A stretch of DNA of 62,140 nucleotides, counting the filler, from Bonamia ostreae (Eukaryota): NCBI GenBank assembly GCA_040357525.1. It is 28 parts of 28 records of this genome, joined end to end, with 100 filler letters (N's around TTAATTAATTAA, not from the genome) between each part and the next. Parts side by side here need not be neighbours in the genome. Positions count along the whole stretch, not along the records: positions 26,842 to 28,962 come from JBDODL010001030.1; 27 more parts are not named here. The stretch is one strand, 5' to 3'. Below, piece by piece: positions 11,340 through 56,455 of this stretch; the stretch's first letter is position 1, and every line of letters begins with the position of its first letter. A model generated the notes under the pieces. That model ran no database searches, had not been told where the DNA came from, and was given only the letters and a program-made list of their open reading frames with translations. The position numbers were made by a program, and so were the translations under genes.

Positions 11340-13150
11340 ATGGATCCTAAGAAACCATTAAATATCGCGGACAAGAAAAGACTAGAAATTAACTCGGACA
11401 GCGTCACTTCTTATATCCGGAATACCAAAATGTTCGGCGGACAAGCGAGCATTAAAGCCATTTCGGAGTTTCCGGGAAACGACATATGCGCTGATTGCCG
11501 CAGAAAAGGTTCGGAAATTAGATTCATTATATTCGTCCATCTTTAAAAGCGAAATTAGTGCAAATTTAAACAAATTTGTTTTAACAAAATTTTCAATTAA
11601 AGAGAATGAGTGGGTTAGCTTGAAAATAGGAATATTCATTTGCATTGATTGCGCTAGAATACACAAAACGCTCGGGAAAGAATTTGCCGAAGTCCAATCT
11701 ATAAAACATGACGCGGTTATATGGGACCTGGAAAAAATCCAAGTTAAAATTTGTTACAAATCTCATTATTTTTTCGAAAAAAATTTGCAATAATAATAAA
11801 ATTTGGAGCAAAAATAAAAATTTGGAACAAAAATAAAATTTGGAACAAAAATAAAATTTGTAACAATAATAAAATTTGTAACAAAAATAAAATTTGGATC
11901 AAAAATAAAATTTGGAACAAAAATAAAATTTGTAACAATAATAAAAATTTGTAACAATAATAAAAATTTGTAACAATAATAAAATTTGGAACAAAAATAA
12001 AATTTGCAAAAAAATAAAATTGCAAAAAAAATAAAATTTGGAACAAAAATAAAATTTGGAACAAAACAGTTTTTGGAAGCAGCCGGGAATTTAATGATGA
12101 ACAACATCTACGAACATCGATTGCCGAGTTATTATTTGACTCCGAATGAGCTGATCGATTCCCCTTTCGTCCGCAAAAATTTTATCTCGGTTAAATATCT
12201 TGAAAAACTGTTTTTGAAAACCGACAGAAATCTCCACGAAAACGAAATTAACGAAAAAGATCATCTCGTTGTGGAAGGATGTCCTTTTTACAAAATGCCG
12301 CAGGTTTTGCCAATCTTTCCAAAAGCACTTTTGCCAATTTACAATTTCTTCCAAAGAACCCGTTAACGTTTGAAGGCGAATATCGATCTGAGAAAAAACA
12401 AAAAGGATCAAAAGCTTCGATGATATTGATAAACTCGATTCTTTCTGTTTACAAATCCGAAAAAGTTTCGCTTCAAAAATTTTAAAATTTCGAAATTGTT
12501 AAATCTAAAATATATTAGGATAAAAACCCGAAAGCAACGATAGAAATCGAAAAAGCGAAAATCGATTTGACGAACCGCATCGTCAAAGGACTGCAAGAAT
12601 ATTCGATAAAGGTCGCTTCAAAGGACAAATGTCACTTTTTTGACATGAGAGAGACTTCCGGAATCATTGATATCGTCCATTCGATGAGAAGAGCTAGTGC
12701 CTTTTATTCCACAAACCCAAATCAAAAATTGTCGAATATTTTGCCCAAAAATATGGTCAATTTGCAATTTTAAAAAAAAATGTCGATTTTTTTAACAAAA
12801 TTTTCGGTAAAAAGATGTTTGAAAAAGCAATTTTGGAGAATTCTGCAATAAAAGGAATGGCCAAAGTGTCCGGTTCGAAAAAATGGATTGTTCTGGTCGA
12901 CGAAAATTTATATTTTTTCAAAAGCCAAAAGAATGTCAGTCCGAATGGTTGTGTCTTATTGAGAGAATCGCTAATCAAAGAACACAAACAAAATTCAATA
13001 ATGATCGTTTCGCCGTTCCAACGCGTTATCGTAAAACTTTCTGACGCGGAAGAAACGACAAAATGGCTTTTCGAGCTTAAAAAAGTTGGTGAAACGTTGA
13101 ATGAACAGAAGTTGGTCGATTTTAAGGATTTGTGTGAGTATGAAAAATAG
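11340..13150 (+). CDS. ArfGAP with two PH domains (ADAP/centaurin-alpha-like), 6 exons
   Basis: Spliced GNDICADCRRKENEWVSLKIGIFICIDCARIH is the ArfGAP zinc finger with catalytic Arg. PH-like segments follow (KKWIVLVDENLYFFK...EETTKWLFEL). Introns include 11509-11602, 11743-12069 and 12304-12356. Confidence 0.85.
11790..12066 (+). repeat. Tandem array of ~18-bp units (AAAATAAAATTTGGAACA / ATAATAAAATTTGTAACA) filling ArfGAP intron 2
   Basis: About 15 adjacent units are directly visible, with no spacers. Confidence 0.9.
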
Positions 13151-15510: not shown

Positions 15511-15763
15511 GTTTTTTGCTAAAAAAACAATTTTATTGTTATTAAAACAATTTAAAAAAAACAATTGAAAGTTACAAAAAAAAAAACTAACCATTACNNN
15601 NNNNNNNNNNNNNNNNNNNNNNNNNNNNNNNNNNNNNNNNNTTAATTAATTAANNNNNNNNNNNNNNNNNNNNNNNNNNNNNNNNNNNNNNNNNNNNAAA
15701 TTTTACGACATTTCGATTGAACAACAAAACATTGCCGTTTTTAAAAATTTTTTGCAATTCGTT

Positions 15764-16469
15764 TTAACAACAAAAAACTTTCAATAAATCAATAAGAGGT
15801 TGCCCTTGAATTCTAATCAGGTTATTTAACGCGTTGAGCGCGGGAAGCACAACGGTCGGCTGCGCCGGGAACACTTTAAGCGACTCCACGATTTCCACAA
15901 CCGTTTTTTCAGACGTTCCTCTAGCGAAATTGTCGTCTTCTGTCATTCTCTCGAGCACGCTGAGAATGGAGCTCGCAAGTTGTTTGTTCTTCGTCCTGTT
16001 GGCCTCGGCCAACGTTTCCCTCAAAACCTCTTCTCCGCCAAGTTCTTTTATTCTATTTTTTCGGAATGAAAAACTTGTCGATATTGGGCGGATATCCGTC
16101 GCAAAGTGCGCGCAACAGATCCGCCACGCGGGCCGAGGACAGCTTGTCTTTGGAGCTCCGCAGTTGTTTGAGGCAGAACTCCACGCCGCCGTCGTCAGCG
16201 ATCTGTTTCGCGTATTCTTTGACGCGGCACGCGGAGATGAGCGGATTGCAGCCTTCGGAGATGATGCGCGGATTGTCTCTGTGCAGTTCGAGAGTACTGA
16301 GAATGGTCGGGAAGGTCTTCTCGCGAGCCATTCTGTCGAGATTCACTCTGTTCTTCGCGAGATGGCCAAAGCAGTTTAAAGTGTAAATGCACAAACGGCC
16401 AAATTTTGGTTTTTCTTTGAGTGCTTTAACCAAAGTTTTGACGTCTTCTTCTCCTTTGTCGAAGCCCAT
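15764..16469 (-). CDS. Armadillo-repeat protein, N-terminal part
   Basis: Helical ARM-like repeats (IADDGGVEFCL; IKELGGEEVL; VEIVESL...ALNALNNL). A 22-nt intron at 16053-16074 restores the frame. Confidence 0.7.
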
Positions 16470-17085
16470 TAGTTTTTTATTGAATTAATACTGTTTTCGA
16501 ATATAATATTATATAGCTGTTTTTTAAGCTTTAAATTTATTGCGATTTTGTAAGCTTAAGATTTGTAATTTGTTTCCAAATGAAGAATCGGAATTTATAA
16601 ATTTAAAATATAATTTTATAAACAATGGAAGATCTAAATCTAAATAATTTAAAGTTTAAAAAATTTATCAGAAAATTATGTGATTGCTTAAAATGAATAA
16701 AAAATGAGATTGATATAAAAGAAAATCAAACAAGGTTTGATCAAATAAAAAAATTTGAAAAACATGAAAAACAAAAAATTTGAACATTTTCAATTTTTAA
16801 AGGGATCATCGTAGATGAAATCGCTGATCATTATAATTGTTTAAAAGATAAAAATTTAAAAAATGAGTAACGGAAAAATCATAACTAGAAATGGTTAAAA
16901 TGCTATCGCCAAACAACATTAATCGTTCTGTATTTCCGCCATTAACAATATCAAAATATCGTTAACGATGGAATTCAGAACGACAAGAAACTCATAACAA
17001 GTCTAATCAATTAAATCCATAAAAAGTCAAATGTTCTCGCCATTCCATTATATGCGAAGCAAATAATATCCAAATTTTGTTTCTC

Positions 17086-17835
17086 ATGTTCCGACAATCT
17101 ATAAAGAACAAAGCTCTTTTCTTTAAATCCGCGACTGCTCTCGGTTGTTCATTTGGAGTCCAAGCTCTTTTTCTGAACTGCGCGTTTGCGGAAGACACGA
17201 AGAAAACGAGAGTTTTCAGTTGGGGCGCAAGCCAATATTTCCAGACTGGTTTGGGGCGCAACAAAGGAGTCTATTCCCCTGAGCCGGTCTCGTTCTTCGA
17301 CGACGTGGCCATAGCCGACATCCAAGCCGGGGGCCAGCAGACCTTCGTTCTCGCCAAAGACGGCAAAGTTTACTCTTTCGGTCGTGGCGACGACGGGAGA
17401 CTCGGCCACGGCGGAGAGGCGAACGAGGTTCTGCCGCGCGTTGTGGAATCGCTTCTGGGCACTAAAATAGCATCCCTGTCCTGCGGCGAAAAACATGTCG
17501 CCGCTGTCACCGAAGACGGGGACTTGTACACTTGGGGAAGAGGGCATTCGGGGCAACTGGGGCGAGACCCGTCTGACTTGCCTCGGAAAGTGCCGGGCAT
17601 GGCCAACATAAAAGCGGTTTCGTGTGGGAAGTTCCACACGGTCGCAGTCGACTCTTCGGGGCGCGTTTTTTCGTGCGGCGAAGGGCGCTCGGCCGCTCTC
17701 GGCCATGGCGACCGCGATTCCAGAGAGCAATTTGAACTCGTCGGGAATCTGAAAGACGTGAAAATAACCGATGTGGCCGCTGGAGAAGATTTCAGTCTTT
17801 TTTTGTCCGAAGATGGACGCCTCTTTTCCTGTGGA
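17086..17835 (+). CDS. RCC1-repeat (beta-propeller) protein, 3' truncated
   Basis: Repeated G..H/T..........GxVYSxG.G..GxLGxG motifs. The basic, acid-free N-terminus resembles a mitochondrial presequence. Confidence 0.9.
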
Positions 17836-20370: not shown

Positions 20371-22030
20371 TCATGAACTTACTTCAAAGGTTTCTCCGTT
20401 GATCGTCTCTATCATTGCGTCCAAGCACTTCACTGAGGTTTGTGATGTACATATAACCTCTGGACATTCTATCTGATCCTGTATACAGTCTGGTTTTAAA
20501 TATGGGCTCTCTTCTGCTTGGGCACACGATTTCAAATAACCAATACATGGAATGCAATATGCATGGAAATAAGAACATGATCTGTTGCGAATCTGCACCT
20601 GTGAAATTCAATAAAGAACAATATACATGACAAATGACATATTTTCCTCTCACAAGTATACATAATTGCAACGATGCATATAGTATCAACTCATGGGCAA
20701 GACAAATAATTAGGTGTATCCCCTTCTTTAAGATGTTTGCTTAATTTTTTATAGGAATATTTTCTGTGATAGGAATCGTATCTGAATATACACTGGGTTG
20801 TATAATCTAGGTGTACCATGGTTGATGTAAATGCACAATATTATGCGATTATCACCTTCTGATGAGGATTACTCGTGACTATATGGACTGGTCAAGTATT
20901 TTACCGTAGCCGTAGACCATCTACGATTTCAACATCAATCAAAACTGTCTGAAAAAAATTATTTTGGCCATATCGTATTGCTATCAGTCTTTTCGCTGTT
21001 TTCTTGCAGAACTTCGAAAAACATTTTGACAACACAAAATTTAAAAATGCCAAGTCAAATAATTCAAACATTTGACTTTTTCCTTTCGCTTACAGTTAGC
21101 ATCTGAAAAAATTCACAGCTGAGGTGGTGTATTTTCTTATATTTACGGAATCCTTGTCAAATAAAATTGATCTTCGACAGTGGCAAACCTGCCGTCCAGA
21201 TCCGCCATTTACTTGTTACAGACGTCTCTAATTGTTTTAAAAATGTCAGCAAATCGTTTATGATCGGTCAAAATGGAATAGGTGAAGTTGATCTTAGGAA
21301 AAGATCATCTTTACCAATGAAAGAACATCAAAATTGTTAATAATTTTTATATTTTTTATATTTTTTATCGCTTTCTAATTTTTTAAGCTTATCTATTGTA
21401 AATATTGCTACATGTATGTGTTATAGTTTTTGCATCGACATCGATTTGCTGAGTACATTACCTTTCTAGTACTACATGCAACTTATATTTTGATATTTTG
21501 TCAAACAGAGCACAGCGTTATGAGATACATGTATTCATAAATGAATAATAATTCTGAATTCTGAAAGAATATGCTATGTAGTAGACAATGCAGTCAATGG
21601 TTAATCTTGATCTCCTTACCGTGTTTGAACAATAATCTTTGCATCTTCTGCAGGAGAATTTGCTCAATTCCAAAGTAACCGCTGTCTGTAACATATCATT
21701 TAATATATGTTTGAATATATCTTTGTTGCAGTAATGCTTACTGACAGAAATGTTGTCATGTACAGAAACAGTGAAATAAATATCTTATTCACCCGTTCAG
21801 AAAAATATATAATCGGCAATTCATGTTCCATAGTTTCTTGTAAAAAATGACTTTACCATAAGCGGTGTCTTTCTAAACTCTCGTAAAAGGTTTTGGATTA
21901 CTGATCCTGGAACTTCTGTTTTACAAAATCTGTTGAAACATTGCACATAATTCTGCTGTGAAGCTTTCTGTGCTTGCTGTGTACATGTCAGGCAATGAGA
22001 GTGTCTACATCTCTTGAATCTAAAGATAGC
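20371..22030 (-). CDS. Host-type multi-exon gene with RING-like Cys/His modules (partial)
   Basis: Exons encode CRHSHCLTC...VQCFNRFC and CSYFHAYCIPC...IECPEVIC, with canonical GTAA donors and long introns. Confidence 0.5.
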
Positions 22031-26219: not shown

Positions 26220-27521
26220 TGACCTTTAAATTTTAGTTGCTGAAATTATATGAGTTTAATTTTAATTGAGTTTTGTAATATTTAGCAGAATATGCTTATT
26301 TCACAGTTTTTACAAAACATACTAATATTCAAAGGATTGAGTTTGTAATGTGGCTTGGACAATTTATTTTTTTGAGTGATAAGTGTTCATATATTTATTT
26401 TGATTGCTTTCTTTTGGAAATGTAACATAAGTCGTAGGTTGTTTTTTCTAAACCTCAATTAACATGGACAAATCTTTTAAAAAGGTCATCCACCATTCCC
26501 TCGATATATAAAAATTTTCGAAAAGAGGGAGAATACGATTGTAAAAATCGTTTCGTAAAAAACTTATTCCGAAGTTATACCTCAAAACCGAAAAATGATT
26601 CTGACGAAGATGTTTAGAATAATAATCGGCACATTAATAATACAAAGATTTGGTTACTTGGGGGGGGGGGGGGGGGGTAAATGCGAAAAAATTTTTAAAA
26701 ATTATTTTTTGGATTTAACAAAATTTTTATTTTTTTTTTATNNNNNNNNNNNNNNNNNNNNNNNNNNNNNNNNNNNNNNNNNNNNTTAATTAATTAANNN
26801 NNNNNNNNNNNNNNNNNNNNNNNNNNNNNNNNNNNNNNNNNAAATAAATACTTTCTTTAAAAATTTGAAAAATTCTGAGAATAATTTTTTAAAGGATACA
26901 AATTAAATGATTTTAATCTTAAGTTGTCCCCGTTGACTAAAAAGGGCAGAATTTTAAATTTGCATCAAATCTCAAAAAGCTTAACCCCCCCCCCCCCCCC
27001 TCCAAGTGCACCTTTACCCAATCTTCTTCTCTCCCTTTCCAAACTTCCATCGAAGAAGGTTTGCAGTAGGGTTCTAAACTTACGACATGGTCAATTTCTG
27101 CAGAAAAGGATTCCCGACAAACTACTAAAAACAAGATCGCTACGTTTAGTAAACGGAAGCGATTTTGATAACTTTAAAAGCGGGCAAGTTAAATAAACTA
27201 ACTATTCAGGGATAACATTCAACGATAAATTAATTTCACGTCCAACACCAATAATTGCTCGACTTCAATGCAGAAAAACAGATATTTGTCGGAAAAACAG
27301 ATCAACAAAAAGACTGAACTCCCCCATGCAACAAAACGAAAAAATTTGGCAATTTCTTTATCATAAATTTTTATCTAGAAACGATTAAAATGCTAAGACG
27401 ACATATTTTGAAACTAAGCGTCGCCCTGCCCACAAAAGACGAAATATAAACTGGAGAAATTAGTTCAATAAATCCCAATTGAGCAAAAAATTAGTTCAAT
27501 ATGACAAGACCAAAAAGTAAT

Positions 27522-28316
27522 TTATGTATCGTCAAAAAGATCGTGCATAGAAGTAAACTTCTCATGCGCTGTGTCAATTTTTTCTCGAAGCACTTTCAAG
27601 GCCGTTCGAACAAGTTTTTCGGGGGCCATTTGACCCATCGATTCAACTTCCATTTCAAATTCCGTCGGCGCGTTTTCGCCGCTGTCGTTGCCTTCTCCGC
27701 CTTCGTAATTGAATTTTACGAAAGCCGGAGACCACTTCGAATGTTCTTTTCCGATACCTCTTCTGGCAACTAGAACTATTTCCAGTTTCTGGTTCGGACC
27801 CAATTTTGCAAGAATGGTCCCTTCTCCTTTCGGAGCATCGGCGTCGAAGATTTTGACGCTGTGGCCCTATTTTACGGTGAGCTAACGAAACCGGTTGTTC
27901 TCGCTTCGACTCGTTTTTGATATCTCCGCTGTACACCAAAAGCTTGTCTCGCTGCGCCCGCACTCTTAACTTGAAACACACCTGGCATTTTGGGCAGGCC
28001 CCTTCGCATGAGCATTGCTACCGAGTTTGCTATAAAACTTCGGGGATGTTGAACTCTTCGATGTTGTCGCATTGAAGAGGAACCAGTCCCAATCGGTGGG
28101 CTATCATTTCGTCACTGAGGAAACTGGTGTTTTCGTTGATTTCGGCGGAATCGAATGCCAGACAAGGAATCTAAAAATCTGGCTTAGAACCTCAGAAATC
28201 AGAATCCGCCTCAGTCCGTTTGCGATGCTGTGGTTGGTTTCAAACATTTTAAAGCGAATCGAACTACTGTTCAGTTCCAGTATCTTTATTTTAGGGTATT
28301 TGCTCGGCGTGTCCAT
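27522..28316 (-). CDS. RPB3: RNA polymerase II subunit RPB3, complete, 3 micro-introns (28171-28190, 28018-28038, 27867-27891)
   Basis: [35 protein letters not shown], zinc motif [10 protein letters not shown] and [12 protein letters not shown]. The frame is restored by 20-, 21- and 25-nt GT-AG introns. Confidence 0.92.
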
Positions 28317-29399
28317 TTAGCAGCGTTGCGTCTAAATTAGTTAAACTTGGCTAATTGCGTTGATATTGCTAATTACGTTAAACTTGGCTTATTAGTTAAA
28401 CTAGTTACGTCGAAAAATAATGAAAATTAGGCTTCGTAATGGAGCTTTTTAGATTTGTGCATAAATCTGGTAATCGATGAATTATTTTTCGAGTCACTAA
28501 CAAAATTTTTTTCTAGTTAATTGTGATTTAATCAAATCTCTCCACTTTTAGCAGATATGTAGACGCTTCGTTAACGCAAATATGTCGTATTAGCATTTTA
28601 GCAATTTCTAGATTTGTTATTTTTCAAATTATTTTTTTCTTTGTATATTTGCAAATTATATTTTTCGTTGGTTTTCGAAAAATTATATTCTCGCATCCGA
28701 TAATTAAATTATAATTCGAAAAATTATATTTTCATTTAACGCTCAAAAAGTAATATGTACCCAGAATTGATAATTACCAAGATCTAGTTAAATGATTCTT
28801 TACTTCACTCGAATTTGTTAACAAGATGAGAATTTTTAAATTAAGTAAGATGAAAAGTGGGCCTTCTATGACACTTCTCTCGCGAGAAGCTCTGATTGAG
28901 AAGCCAGGGGTCATACAACTCTCAAAACAACTTAAATTAATTTCCCGCAGTTAGTGTCCTGANNNNNNNNNNNNNNNNNNNNNNNNNNNNNNNNNNNNNN
29001 NNNNNNTTAATTAATTAANNNNNNNNNNNNNNNNNNNNNNNNNNNNNNNNNNNNNNNNNNNNTCCGGGTCGGGTACACGTTCTGGAACAAGTTATATTCG
29101 TACTGTGTTGTTTGTAGCAGAGAATTCTTTTTTCTAATCAAGAAGTTTTGTTTTGTATAGGAAATGACTTTCTTTGATAAGGTTCAATTTTGACATTATG
29201 TATTGTTTTCATATAATTCAGATCATATCATTTAAATGAAAAAAAAAGTTTCAGAAATAATATAAGACTGACCTCTGGTATTTATTCAAATGAAAATATT
29301 CTAATTGATTGAAATATCTCCATATGTTGAATTTTATTGGCCATTCATACTACTTGTATCTTTATTGCTTCAGCGATATTCTCCAAGAAATACAGTGCG

Positions 29400-31435: not shown

Positions 31436-32756
31436 TCATCCCAAATAGCAAAACGTAACAAGAATGACAATCGAAAGAAAGTGGAAAGTCGATAATTGGG
31501 AAAATGCTCCGGAAATATTTTGTGGCACGCAGCGAGGACTTCCGACCCAACTTTTGTTCACGCATTTATAAAATCCCACAACATTGAAGCCTGCGACGCA
31601 TTTCAGGTTCATAAACTCTCCTTCGTTCGTCACATTTTTCGGGATTTGAATTAATCCTTTGACATCCGGCCCTTTCCCGGTGCAAAAACAATTGCAAGCG
31701 TCAACAGATTTTATGCCGGTGTCGGTGCACCAAACAGAACCTTTTTGAGTGTTGTTACATCCGGCTTTGCAAATGTACGAGTTGTATTTGATCGCTGTCC
31801 TGTTGATTTTTTTGTAGTCTGTGCTCGGTTTGACTCGTCCCGAAAATTTCGAGCTGTCACAAACTAAATATTTTTCTTAAAACTATCGCAGAATTCTGGG
31901 ATGTTCGCCTCGTAATCGAAAGCCCCGTTTATGCAAGTGATTTGTCCAAAGTTCTTGCGATCTTTCCTGCAATACGAATTTTGTAGATAATCTCTAGAAG
32001 AGACAAAATTGGTCGTCCAAGACTGTGTTGTGTACAAGCCTTTGGAGAGCTTGTCGATGCCGCATGCTTTGTTGGAAGACAAAGAACTGCAGTTTGATTC
32101 AGTTATTTTGCTGTTCTGGCATTCCATTGTTTCCAGATCGTACGTTGGGCTAGTTTTAGATTCGCAGCCCGAGTAAGCGCTGCTTTTGTTTTTGATGTAC
32201 TTTATAAAGTCGGCTCTAAATAAAGGAGCGGGCAGAGATTCTGGAACTGTGCAATGAGCGGGATTAAGGAGTTTCCAATTAGCAATGTCTTCGAAATTTT
32301 TTTGTTGGCGAAAATTTGTTAAGAATTTTAAAAAAACAGTGAAAATCGCACGGAAATAAAATTTATTAAATTTGAACAATTTTGGAATATTTGCAAAAAA
32401 AACAGTTTAAAATTAAAAAAATGACTATTTGGGAAACCAACACAAGACATTCCAAAATTATCGCCATAGATCGTTATCAAAGTTTCTTGCAACGCATAAT
32501 ACAGAAAATCGACAATAAACTCATTTGCATTTTTATTGATTTTAATTTTATTGGTCAAATCAGAACATCTAAAAACGACTTCATCCGAAAAGTCTGTGTT
32601 CGCATCTTCAACTTTTGTAAATCCTTTTGATAGAAATTCTTCCCTGGTTTCTTTTAATTCACGTGGAAAATATTTAAAATCGAATTCTGTTGTCAAATTT
32701 TTGATTTTGTGGGCGTTATTGAAGATCAATAGCAATTGAACTATTCCAATAATCAT
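31436..32756 (-). CDS. Cys-rich surface protein with sushi/CCP-like modules, signal peptide and C-terminal hydrophobic (GPI-like) tail; complete, introns 32289-32437 and 31864-31883
   Basis: MIIGIVQLLLIFNNA N-terminus; GQITCINGAF, YICKAGC...GSVWC and LKCVAGFNVVGFYKCVNKSWVGSPRCVP modules; ends SGAFSQLSTFHFLSIVILVTFCYLG*. Confidence 0.7.
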
Positions 32757-46795: not shown

Positions 46796-47164
46796 TCTTT
46801 GTTGATTTTATCTTTGTTATTTTTCCTTTCTTCCTCAATTTTAATTTGTTTTTGCTCTTCCTTCGAGAGGCTTTTCTCACCGTCCCTTTCTCTTCGCTCT
46901 CTTTTTCTGTGTGAATAGTCGTTTCCAGGTTTTCTTTTTGTGTGGGAGTCCCGCACTTCTCGTTCAAAATCCTTTCTCTCCTGACGAGTTTTTTTTAGCT
47001 TTCACGTTTTTTCAAAAAACCAATTTTCTCTTCTTTTCGCTATTCTTCGATTCTTCTTCTTTTCGCTTTTTCTCTCTTTCTTTTTTTGAAATGAATTTCG
47101 GTCTGGCGAGTTTCGACATTGTCGATGTACTGCTTCTCGACAAGCTTAAGTTTGCTAAATCCAT
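46796..47164 (-). CDS. PRP28/DDX23-like DEAD-box splicing helicase, N-terminus only; 22-nt intron 46999-47020
   Basis: RPKFISKKERE followed by a charged R/E/K region and EQKQIK resembles the PRP28 N-terminus. The helicase core is not on the contig. Confidence 0.55.
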
Positions 47165-50455: not shown

Positions 50456-51070
50456 ATGATGGAGTTTAACCGACCATGCAGATTGTAATTTTAGTCAAAT
50501 AAAAGGTGTTGGAACAAAGAGAGCGTTCACGCATGTCCGAAATGCAATATTTCGTATTGTTCCCTTTCGTGTTACCAAGTTTTGAGTCCAAACGTAAAGT
50601 CGCATAGTAACGATTGCACTGAAGCGTTCTACAAAGACAACGTGGAAAATCAACTAAAATCTGGAAACTCTATTCCCGAAAAAGAACGACAAAAAATGGC
50701 CGAACTAGTCCAAAAAGAAATCAACAAAATCGTAACTGGCGAAATAAGCTTCAAAAGCGAAGAAAATCACGAAACCGACTCGGAATCTGATATTTTCGAT
50801 AAAGAAATGACGGGAAAAATGGAAAGAATGGCAGAAGAAGAAAACTTCGACTTTGGAGAATTTAGTGAAAAAGAGCAAAATCGTTTTTTCAATGCCGTCA
50901 ATAGCGGTCTGCTCAATTCAAGTGTAATTGAATGGATTCCGTGGTGGAAAAGTTATTTCCCGCAATTACAAAACGGCAAGACCGACATACCAAAAAAGAT
51001 TTTGGTAATTGACCATCAACGTAATTTTAATTTTCAAAAATTAAAATCTCTCAACTTTCCAATTTTTTAA
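50456..51070 (+). CDS. ZNHIT2: zf-HIT protein, ZNHIT2-like; 21-nt introns 50485-50505 and 50579-50599
   Basis: Spliced CRLC......ACPKCNISYCSLSCYQSHSNDCTEAFYKDNV, and later WIPWW. Confidence 0.8.
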
Positions 51071-53422: not shown

Positions 53423-55427
53423 TTTTGAGTGGATTCTACTCGCTTAAATATTGCAATGATTTTGCAGTCGTTGAATTGTCGCAACGCCGCGAAAACTTCG
53501 CACGCGCTCGAGCGCACTTCGGATGCTCCGTCAGCGAACATTTTCACAGTAAGTTCTGCCAAACTTTCTCTGTTCTTCGCAATTACCTTCTCGCTAGAAC
53601 TATTTTTGATCGTTTCGGCTATCCACAAAAGTGTGCATTTTCTCACTTTTGGCGATTTGTTCTGCAGAGCTTTTTCGACCGACGCAAACACTTCGTCCAA
53701 AGTTACAGACTTTGTATTTTCGAAACAAAAACGTTTTCTATAAACGAACTCAACGCCTCGAAGCAGCTCTCTTCGAGAGTTCTTTTTTTGTCTTTGAATT
53801 TGAGCAGAATCGGTAAACAGAAAAGTTTTGCGAACGGAGAAAAGTTTCTGCCCATTCCCTTTGAAAGAGGCGGGAAGACTTTGAGCGCGAAAATGACTGT
53901 GTTGACATTTGGATCTTTGAGCAACTTTGAGATGGCGTCGAAAAAGAGATTTTCTTCGAAATGCTTTTTGATTCCGCCATTCTCCGCTTGGCTGCTTCTC
54001 TCAATTACTTTGGACAACATTTCCTTTTTTTCTTGCCATTTTCCGGACAAAAGTTTTTCTGTCCAGTCTGGTCCCATTCCCAATTCCGAGAAAAGGTCAA
54101 TTTCCGGCACAGAAATTTTAACTTTTATTTTTTCAGTTTGTTGCGAAGAATTTTCGATTTTTTCGATTTGATCGATTTTGATTTGATCGATTTCTGATTT
54201 GATCGATTTTATTTGCAGTTCTCTTCAATGTTTTAGAATTAACTTTAATTTTTTCATATTTTTCAAGTTTAGAAGATCTGAGCCGCCTTTTTTGTACATT
54301 TCGATTGCCAAAGTCATCGCGTTTTTTCTGACAAAAATGTTTGTCGACAAAAAAGCGATTTCCAGTTTTTCTTGAAAATATTTTTCGTTTATTATTTTTG
54401 TGCCGCTATGAGACATCAACTTTTACAAAATGAAATTAATAAAATTTTGAAAATATTAAATGACTTGAAAAACGTTTATTAGTAGTTGCAAACTTGAAGC
54501 AACAACAACAGGTTTTTTATCGAAAAAAATTGCCGTGACGATATTTAATATTTTTTCGAATATTTCCATGTCGCCGATTTGTCTTGCTTTGGTAACAATC
54601 ATTTCGGCAATCGATATTCCAAAACTGCAAAGTTTTGGGGACTGGAAAAGATTTTTGATTACGGATTCAAACGTTTCTTCGGCGGTAGAAACAAAAATTT
54701 CATTTGGGGCATTTTCGATAAACGTTTCAAAACAATTTTTGCCCTTTTATAAAATTTGTTGTTACCGCTTTTAGAACAAGAGGATTTGAAAATGACCCGA
54801 TTTTTGTCATTATCTTAAAATGGTTCTCAAAATTATTGGATTTATCATTTTGGAATATTTTTCTCAGTTTGTTAAATCCCTTTTTTGCGAAATTTATAAA
54901 GACGAATTTTGATTAAATTTGTAAAAATTTTGTGTTTCTTATTTTGACAATTTGATTAACTGCCAAATATGTCTATTTAAATCTAATACCATTTTATAAT
55001 TTAAGACTTTCTTAATTATACCATATTACTTTAATATTTTAAGCTTCACAAAAGTCCAAAAAACAAAAATTTTGTGCTTCAGAGATTTGCTTTCGAACAA
55101 TTCATCTATCGATAATTTGTCAAAATCGATTTCTTTCTCTTTTCCTGTCACAGAACTGACGGCGCGTTCGTAAAGAAGCAAAGCTTCGTTTTCTGGAGAT
55201 TAATTTTGTTACTTTTTTGATCTTTGCAAAATGGTTTAATTTCGTTGTCAACATTGGAATTGCTTAAAATGTTGGTTAATGTGTTCGCTGTGTTGCTAAA
55301 CTGCGGTATAGAATTCTCGTCACAGCCCATTTTCGACAACATTTTTTCATAAAAATCGGCGCCAGATCTTTAACACAATAAATTTAAACCTCGAAGAAGC
55401 TGCTATTTTTTCATTTTCAGCGCTCAT
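53423..55427 (-). CDS. XMAP215/ch-TOG (CKAP5)-like microtubule polymerase, TOG1-TOG2 region, multi-exon, 3' truncated
   Basis: KLSIDELFESKSLKHKIF|GFNKLRKIFQ (TOG1 start), then SGKWQEKKE, KDPNVNTV, LLKFKDKK, NKSPKVR and DGASEVRSSA. Micro-introns at 55368-55389, 55193-55212 and 53710-53732. Confidence 0.85.
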
Positions 55428-55701: not shown

Positions 55702-56455
55702 TTAAAAAATGTAAAAATGAACAAAAGTATTCAAAAGATCGTCATTTTCGTTTTTTTGTGTTTTTTCTCGAGTTCTCTCAAAACTTCTTTTTCTTTTAAA
55801 TTTTATTGAGAAATTTAACCTTTTGCGGTTATTAAAAAGATTTTTGTTTTCAGTTTCATTTCTAAAATCAGAACTTTCTTCTGAGTCGGTTGTAGATAAT
55901 TTGGAATCGTCATTTCTTCCAAATTTTAGATTTTCGACATTATTGCTAATTTTTTCAAATTTAGCTTTTGTTTGATTTTTTTTGCGCTTCCATTCGTTGT
56001 AATCGACAAAAAGTTCTGCGAACGTTATCAAATAGCTTTTGAAGCCGTTTCTGATAAATGAACATGTTTTTAATGAAACTTGTTATACGGGATTTTGGTG
56101 AGAGCTAGTTTGACATCTTCTTCACAACGACGTTCTTTGCCAAAAGATAACAGCATTTGACGAGATGAGAGCAATTTGTCAATACTAAATTCGCTCATTT
56201 TGCAGAAATTGTTCGTTTTTTCAACAATCCGCTTTAATATCAATTCCCTCTGTTATTGTCAAAAGTTTGATTTGAAATTTAACAGTTTTTAAATTTAATT
56301 GGATTTTTGCAGTTTTTAAATTTAAATTAAGTAATTTTTAATTTGGAATTGCTTATTTGGAATTAATATTTAGTGTTTCAGTTAACGTCTTCTTCTTGCA
56401 GAGATTCAAGTAAAAGATGTGTAAATTTGATATAAGAGTTTGTAGTTTCCTCCAT
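55702..56455 (-). CDS. Hypothetical protein, multi-exon
   Basis: ATG at 56455. Exons join in frame via GTTAAC..CAG and GTTTCA..CAG introns; no recognisable motif. Confidence 0.45.

Follow-up and report, generated by a model that had tools for sequence, protein, structure and literature searches.

Probable miniature GT-AG introns with a GUU(U) 5' end in the haplosporidian oyster parasite Bonamia ostreae

Introduction

How short a spliceosomal intron can become, and what replaces the signals that it loses, is an open question, and one that has so far been argued from few lineages: heterotrich ciliates, nucleomorphs, mikrocytids, dicyemids and myxobolids. The RPB3 gene of Bonamia ostreae (Rhizaria; Endomyxa; Ascetosporea; Haplosporida) raises it anew: its reading frame is open only after three segments of 20, 21 and 25 nt (28171-28190, 28018-28038 and 27867-27891) are excised. 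Here we analyse the window that carries this gene, by which we mean the whole stretch of 62,140 bases, made up of 28 contigs of 2101-2144 nt each with N-run spacers between them. A first reading, made from the sequence alone, had proposed that the introns of this organism are 19-27 nt long, with U-rich GTT(T) donors and A-rich acceptors. We regard it as highly probable that such segments are genuine GT-AG spliceosomal introns of this haplosporidian oyster parasite, and that their commonest class is miniature, of about 20-25 nt, with a GUU(U) 5' end. In the grammar that emerges, U enrichment fades from +3 to +5, there is no G at +5, the interior is a mix of A and U, and AAG or UAG closes the intron; a longer minority of introns, of about 50-300 nt, mostly shares the GTT(T) start.

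The draft genome of B. ostreae measures 12.24 Mb at 33.3% G+C, its mRNAs averaging 2 introns each, and the accessible part of its description says of B. ostreae only that it 'carry canonical introns' (PMC11069148). The word 'intron' is absent from the transcriptome paper (PMC9329632), and the literature searched, subscription journals and supplements aside, yielded no account of how long the introns of Bonamia or other haplosporidians are or of their donor motif. Gene models are thus already public, and the intron grammar of B. ostreae appears to be undescribed in the literature reached.

Results

The four exons of RPB3 (Table 1) are matched by Pfam RNA_pol_L and RNA_pol_A_bac, and the spliced model reads through in the standard genetic code with no in-frame stop. 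All three of the segments that interrupt it begin with GTT and end with TAG, so that they conform to GT at the 5' end and AG at the 3' end, and the conserved frame is regained on their removal. Used as a query, the last exon finds one 100% identical public protein, MES1921026.1 ('DNA-directed RNA polymerase II subunit RPB3 [Bonamia ostreae]', 242 aa; Pfam PF01000 and PF01193), which corresponds exactly to the four joined exons, with the intron sequences absent. A dicyemid or a myxozoan, each considered at first as the source, was rejected on the name of this protein. At the level of sequencing runs, in a comparison that covers contig 13 only, a 675-nt contig of run X3 (record 21, k-mer depth ~10981) spans 27554-28294 with 0 mismatches, minus exactly 25, 21 and 20 letters at the RPB3 introns; the 25-nt gap was placed one base to the left, at 27866, which is equivalent, the flanking base being identical. 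We treat X3 as RNA-like; its record reads 'RNA? (a guess)', its organism label differs from that of the DNA runs carrying the RPB3 contig, and no run carrying this contig is recorded as RNA. Contig record 2 of the DNA run X1 (26867-28486) retains all three segments, and a second DNA run, X2, has almost no cover over them. Because the X3 gaps fall at the exact intron places and X1 keeps the segments, these are introns and not assembly errors, with removal from the RNA-like sequence and presence in DNA seen for three of three. The RPB3 lengths of 20, 21 and 25 nt read from the sequence alone are thereby borne out, and the span 27867..28190 assigned to them is correct, being that of the outer edges of the RPB3 introns.

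Two further observations concern the surroundings of RPB3. A 36-nt element stands on either side of the gene in inverted orientation (27371-27406, + strand; 28580-28615, - strand), the copies differing at 7 of 36 positions overall and at 1 within a 20-nt core. Its depth is ~2300-2500 in the DNA runs X1 and X2, compared with ~8 for adjacent sequence, and ~27960 in X3, while many contigs branch away at both of its ends. Given this high depth and the many branching contigs, the element is a motif dispersed through this genome in high copy; it could be a promoter, a terminator or the end of a mobile element. Separately, contig record 22 of X3 (97 nt, depth ~2658) matches only through its letters 26-97, at 28265-28336; the 25 unmatched end letters, which lie near the RPB3 start codon at 28316, could be the product of a chimeric contig, or 5' sequence encoded elsewhere such as a leader.

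The window around this gene mixes DNA of two kinds. Trinucleotide composition and the observed/expected CpG ratio separate a parasite set of about 14-16 AT-rich contigs (CpG ratio 1.3-2.3), which carry short-exon eukaryotic genes, from a host-like set of 12 contigs (0.5-1.1). Among the long open frames of the parasite set, Pfam identifies RPB3, ArfGAP+PH, SMCHD1, RCC1, the DNA primase large subunit, DnaJ, eIF3i, Sec1, TOG/XMAP215, RdRP, zf-HIT and G-patch; the eIF3i exon, used as a query in a public protein search, gave no match. The mixture of protist-parasite and host-like contigs that had been read from the sequence of this window is thus supported.

Across the window, we assembled a set of 15 introns (set A) selected blind to the donor from +3 onward: three from the RNA-like contig, five from a protein profile, and seven from a gene finder that joins a codon model to a flat intron term scoring only GT..AG. 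For the 12 introns chosen by profile or gene finder, GT..AG is a search condition and not an outcome. The profile was built from the first 520 residues of 33 homologues, found by exhaustive search, of the TOG/XMAP215 gene that fills contig 25 (53425-55528) with at least five introns; the matches are collinear on minus-strand frames. Every frame-compatible GT..AG candidate was scored at each of the five junctions (8, 9, 13, 6 and 112 candidates), with margins of 4-11 bits. The GT..AG pairs chosen are those that give the best profile score, and this choice, in which the donor sequence is unused, gives GTT in four of the five, J2 being the sole non-GTT donor; J4 (54223..54243) is also the only short solution linking its two open reading frames (ORFs).

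The codon model of the gene finder is weak even with fixed training (~0.2 bit per codon) and drifts when self-trained. Trained without contig 13, it placed both boundaries of introns 1 and 3 of RPB3 exactly and, of intron 2, the donor only. Because of this weakness and the misplaced acceptor of intron 2, the codon-model introns are labelled as predictions. When the intron model was re-estimated without supervision, a single intron was added. Two other intron finders were tried and rejected: a listing of ORF-joining GT..AG pairs returned 348 candidates, with the groups per contig equal in host-like and parasite contigs, and a path maximising open codons miscalled all three RPB3 introns.

The donors of set A are rich in U. 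GTT opens 13 of the 15 introns (p=0.0028 against 0.488 after any GT; p=1e-4 against an intron-interior T fraction of 0.37) and GTTT opens 11 (p=5e-5 against a background of 0.231). U stands at +3 in 13 introns (A in 1), at +4 in 11 (p=0.005 against the interior T of 0.37), at +5 in 9 and at +6 in 7, and G stands at +5 in none, a count that does not differ significantly from the background of 0.14. The donors are richer in U than either the GT context or intron composition would give, the reverse of the composition-level U at +3 and +4 that had been named beforehand as telling against the proposal. The endings are AAAG (7), TAG (6), GAAG (1) and CAG (1), and a polypyrimidine tract, sought in set A, was not found, the pyrimidine fraction at -14..-3 being 0.50. 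Ten of the 15 introns measure 20-29 nt, four 53-59 nt and one 185 nt, with none below 20 nt; the modal length is thus below 30 nt, as are the RNA-checked lengths of 20, 21 and 25 nt.

Set beside these figures, much of the grammar drawn from the sequence alone reappears. The dominance of GTT recurs in donor-blind sets, although the exact hand count of about 42 in about 48 introns was not reproduced, and the rarity of +5G recurs as well. Ends in AAAG or GAAG with no polypyrimidine tract are common, with TAG accounting for a further 6 of 15; A before AG does not exceed what intron composition gives. The proposed range of 19-27 nt is too narrow for the 5 of 15 introns that span 53-185 nt, all of them predicted by profile or gene finder in this one window, and for a gap of ~315 nt in the ArfGAP gene.

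It is conceivable that GTT(T) reflects base composition together with the choice of boundaries, the introns being real and no special donor recognition being implied. Of all GT sites in the parasite contigs 49% have T as the next base, and 23% of GTNN are GTTT, so that the proper null for GTT is this GT context (0.49) and not a base composition of 0.25-0.35; furthermore, a crude test for GTT enrichment among ORF-joining candidates was not significant (23/40 vs 513/1122, p=0.15), and the sample is small. However, donor-blind selection still yields the GTT and GTTT excess given above (p=0.003 and 5e-5), U at +3 and +4 surpasses interior T, and each of the three RNA-verified introns starts with GTT. 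The same flat gene finder adds a control: at four successively looser penalties, GTT donors number 13/16, 19/23, 28/34 and 38/48 in retained genes, compared with 1/3, 3/7, 10/16 and 13/25 on the losing strand and 0/0, 0/0, 0/4 and 3/13 in host-like contigs. At the loosest penalty this amounts to 79% (38/48, p=1.5e-5) against 42% (16/38) in the decoys formed by losing strands and host contigs (Fisher p=7e-4). Composition and boundary choice are, in our judgement, an improbable explanation of the donor.

A second alternative would have the micro-introns defined by an intramolecular hairpin, whose stem forms between the U-rich 5' half and the A-rich 3' half and juxtaposes the splice sites. The short introns do have 5' halves richer in T (0.46) and 3' halves richer in A (0.44), and two of the ten that we folded with ViennaRNA form weak structures (-2.1 kcal/mol for the ARM-repeat intron and -1.6 kcal/mol for XMAP215 J5, the best folds). 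The example from which the idea came, GTTTTTT-G-AAAAAAC at 46999-47020, is indeed present with its pair of U6 and A6 runs, but it is not typical, and alternatives of 40 and 43 nt share its donor. Against the hairpin, the minimum free energy is 0.0 in 7 of the 10 short introns, those of RPB3 score 0.0, -0.1 and 0.0 kcal/mol, and on average a fraction of 0.72 of interior shuffles folds at least as well as the real intron. A/U-only stems of 5-6 pairs are, moreover, of marginal stability at physiological temperature. The pairing of halves read from the sequence does not stand as a general property, and its role in defining these introns is very unlikely.

That the segments are not introns at all, being assembly or strain indels, or X3 being the DNA of an intron-less retro-copy, has next to no probability: the guessed library type of X3 and its low-depth contigs over non-coding flanks (records 18, 19 and 24) would allow it, but all three gaps coincide exactly with GT..AG boundaries and every one of them brings the conserved protein back into frame, the spliced X3 contig has a depth of ~10981 vs 76 for the flank, the single DNA contig of X1 spans and keeps all three segments, and an independent public annotation has identical junctions.

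Several points nevertheless weigh against reading these segments as a class of miniature GUU(U) introns. RNA-level support covers three introns and comes from the run whose type is a guess, while 12 of 15 rest on the profile (5) or on the weak codon model (7), which put the acceptor of RPB3 intron 2 wrongly (57 vs 21 nt). Within the subset chosen by RNA and profile the donor bias is modest, with GTT in 7/8 (p=0.03) and GTTT in 5/8 (p=0.02); the background of T after GT is high, the lack of +5G lies within its own background, and in set A the bases at -3..-8 are no richer in A than the intron interior (0.40). Five of the 15 introns exceed 50 nt, making miniature size a mode and no rule. Lastly, how B. 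ostreae recognises such sites, including its small nuclear RNAs (snRNAs) and spliceosomal proteins, is a matter that we can only infer.

Further genes of the parasite set carry predicted or candidate introns, listed in Table 1. For the ARM-repeat, 'sushi' and G-patch genes, the flat gene finder predicts the same lengths (22, 20 and 22 nt) as had been read from the sequence; for XMAP215, where 20, 22 and 23 nt had been proposed, the profile picks 185, 22, 54, 21 and 23 nt. An XMAP215 exon compared with public proteins of 337-2000 aa found no identical protein, and an exhaustive search with the middle exon among cluster representatives returned 265 relatives, 0 of them identical. The gene may be unannotated or broken in public annotation, as expected where gene callers miss micro-introns. 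The 'sushi' intron at 31864..31883 is the only solution linking ORFs of 174 and 141 codons; a Pfam search of this cysteine-rich gene of contig 15, called 'sushi' earlier, gave no match. At 11746-12060 (+ strand) two ArfGap Pfam matches (profile positions 22-68 and 65-115) stand ~315 nt apart with a low-complexity repeat between them, a separation from which it follows that the parasite has at least one long intron. Within the zf-HIT gene, a candidate 21-nt GTTT...AAAG segment at 50579-50599 (+ strand), just before which the Pfam zf-HIT match ends, is in frame and stop-free, and for this reason the reading frame cannot decide its splicing; it is one of the two 21-nt introns read earlier in ZNHIT2.

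Other observations bear on the contigs themselves. In parasite contigs 2, 6, 7, 9, 12, 17, 23, 25, 27 and 28 the CpG ratio reaches 1.6-2.3, an excess unusual for DNA with 23-36% G+C, compared with 0.5-1.1 in the host-like contigs. Contig 8 (15698-17835), at 43% G+C, lies well above the remaining parasite contigs, yet its ARM-repeat gene still has a predicted 22-nt GTTT...ATAG intron, and it is probably from the same organism. A host-like contig (33505-35622, - strand) holds a single unbroken reading frame of 706 aa whose closest Atlas clusters bear RVT_1 and endonuclease domains, and which is an apparently intact non-LTR retrotransposon ORF. Host-type contigs had also been said to use canonical GTRAGT donors. 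A crude count of the hexamer agrees, with 14 among 2793 GT sites in host-like contigs vs 4 among 2779 in parasite contigs, and several in the host-like contigs stand where open frames of 66-101 codons end (for example at 20382 (-), 29529 (+) and 321 (+)); the host gene models are candidates only.

Table 1. Positions in the window of the RPB3 gene, its introns, and predicted or candidate introns of other parasite genes
Feature	Position	Strand	Length (nt)	Ends and phase	Basis and remarks
RPB3 gene	27522..28316	-		ATG 28316, stop 27522-27524	ORF reading, Pfam, identical public protein
RPB3 exons	28191-28316, 28039-28170, 27892-28017, 27522-27866	-			42+44+42+114 aa
RPB3 intron 1	28171..28190	-	20	GTTC...TTAG, phase 0	Gone from X3 contig record 21, present in X1 record 2
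RPB3 intron 2	28018..28038	-	21	GTTT...GTAG, phase 0	In-frame TAG; gone from X3 record 21, present in X1 record 2
RPB3 intron 3	27867..27891	-	25	GTTT...ATAG, phase 0	Gone from X3 record 21, present in X1 record 2
XMAP215/TOG intron J1	54880..55064	-	185	GTTT...AAAG	Profile, best of 8 candidates by 8 bits; may conceal a small exon
XMAP215 intron J2	54744..54765	-	22	GTAA...AAAG	Profile, best of 9, 11 bits over 34-nt GTT alternative
XMAP215 intron J3	54420..54473	-	54	GTTT...AAAG	Profile, best of 13, 8 bits over 45-nt GTC alternative
XMAP215 intron J4	54223..54243	-	21	GTTA...GAAG, phase 2	Profile, best of 6 by 11 bits
XMAP215 intron J5	53710..53732	-	23	GTTT...AAAG	Profile, best of 112, just 4 bits over 17-nt GTT alternative
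ARM-repeat gene intron, contig 8	16053..16074	-	22 (predicted)	GTTT...ATAG	Flat gene finder
Cysteine-rich ('sushi') gene intron, contig 15	31864..31883	-	20 (predicted)	GTTT...TTAG	Flat gene finder
G-patch gene intron, contig 28	61747..61768	-	22 (predicted)	GTTT...AAAG	Flat gene finder; Pfam G-patch on downstream exon
Contig 26 intron	56051..56079	-	29 (predicted)	GTTT...TCAG	Flat gene finder; 38-nt GTA alternative exists
ArfGAP-PH gene intron	12304..12356	+	53 (predicted)	GTTT...AAAG	Flat gene finder
ArfGAP-PH gene intron	12465..12518	+	54 (predicted)	GTTT...TTAG	Flat gene finder
ArfGAP-PH gene intron	12756..12814	+	59 (predicted)	GTCA...AAAG	Flat gene finder
Hairpin example intron	46999..47020	-	22 (candidate)	GTTTTTTG...GAAAG	Links ORFs of 48 and 67 codons

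Discussion

The U1 5' end, 5'-ACUUACCU, pairs with the 5' splice site from -1 to +6. A GUUUU donor would pair with this canonical end only at about -1 to +2, and since about three pairs would be kept, recognition may run through a changed U1 or through U6 and U5 together with proteins. Probably, then, one of two routes is taken: the 5' splice site could be read by a co-evolved U1 5' end, as in Entamoeba (ACAAAC vs GUUUGU), whose introns are not known to be miniature, or it could be fixed by U6, U5 and proteins with little or no help from U1, as suggested for mikrocytids. An Rfam scan for snRNA genes, of the window only, found none at gathering score nor at E<=1. The branch point would presumably be an adenosine of the A-rich 3' half, at a near-minimal distance of a few nucleotides from the AG, and the miniature size may most simply be the end state of deletion-biased shrinkage to the lower limit of the spliceosome. 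Length could plausibly define the introns of the 20-25-nt mode, but not introns in general, given that others measure 53-185 nt.

Several known systems resemble Bonamia in part. Among them are the related mikrocytids Mikrocytos mackini and Paramikrocytos canceri, whose introns are highly conserved in sequence and measure 16 nt in 217 of 224 cases and 17 nt otherwise, a size argued to reflect shrinkage to a functional minimum; U2, U4 and U6 are the only snRNAs reported as found in them, and the spliceosome is reduced (PMC10245619). More widely, the Ascetosporea show a drastic reduction in intron number and size (PMC13746701). Like the mikrocytids, B. ostreae belongs to this class of rhizarian intracellular parasites of marine invertebrates and has GT-AG-type introns at the short extreme. 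Unlike their fixed 16/17 nt, 224 introns per genome and conserved sequence, the introns of Bonamia spread over 20-29 nt, with longer ones reaching 53-185 nt or beyond (0 of 15 are below 20 nt), their conservation is limited to GUU(U), and there are about 2 per mRNA (PMC11069148).

Entamoeba offers a likeness at the donor. There GUUUGU begins 88-90% of introns, and the U1 carries ACAAAC (5'-AACAAAC-3') in place of ACUUAC (bioRxiv 10.1101/2022.06.08.495308). Both are AT-rich parasites with U at +3 and +4 in most introns (GTTT in 11 of 15 here), and Entamoeba thus provides a precedent for an altered U1; it keeps +5G and +6U, however, whereas in Bonamia these number 0/15 and 7/15 and the motif decays past +4. 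Myxobolid myxozoans and Dicyema japonicum have intron medians of 22-27 nt, signals reduced to 'GTa' and 'AG', and a few A residues as putative branch site (PMC13644364). They resemble Bonamia in being reduced parasites with short introns and little signal beyond GT and AG, but they are animals with a 'GTa' donor, where Bonamia has U at +3 in 13/15 and A in 1/15. Chlorarachniophyte nucleomorph introns (18-21 nt) and those of heterotrich ciliates (15-16 nt) likewise have length modes near the presumed spliceosomal minimum, in their case narrow (PMC10245619); these are other lineages, and the introns of Bonamia lie in a rhizarian nuclear genome, not a relic nucleus, that uses the standard code.

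It is possible, though we put it forward tentatively and hold it to be somewhat short of an even chance, that the 20-25-nt GUUU...(A/U)AG introns are spliced without conventional pairing of U1 to the 5' splice site, either through an A-rich co-evolved U1 or through loss or sidelining of U1, and that haplosporidians are an intermediate on the way from ordinary introns to the 16-nt introns of mikrocytids. If true, an A-rich co-evolved U1 would mean that such a change arose a second time, independently of Entamoeba. Bonamia sits beside the mikrocytids, the most extreme case, within one class, and a stepwise comparison is therefore possible; the order of donor change, shrinkage and spliceosome reduction would, on this same supposition, become legible from living lineages.

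For the wider question of how small an intron may be, Bonamia adds a haplosporidian lineage in which intron length has its mode at 20-25 nt, longer introns also occur, and the GUUU donor is mismatched to the standard U1. In practical terms, gene callers and read mappers run with their default minimum intron lengths will fragment the genes of this oyster pathogen, which is of commercial importance.

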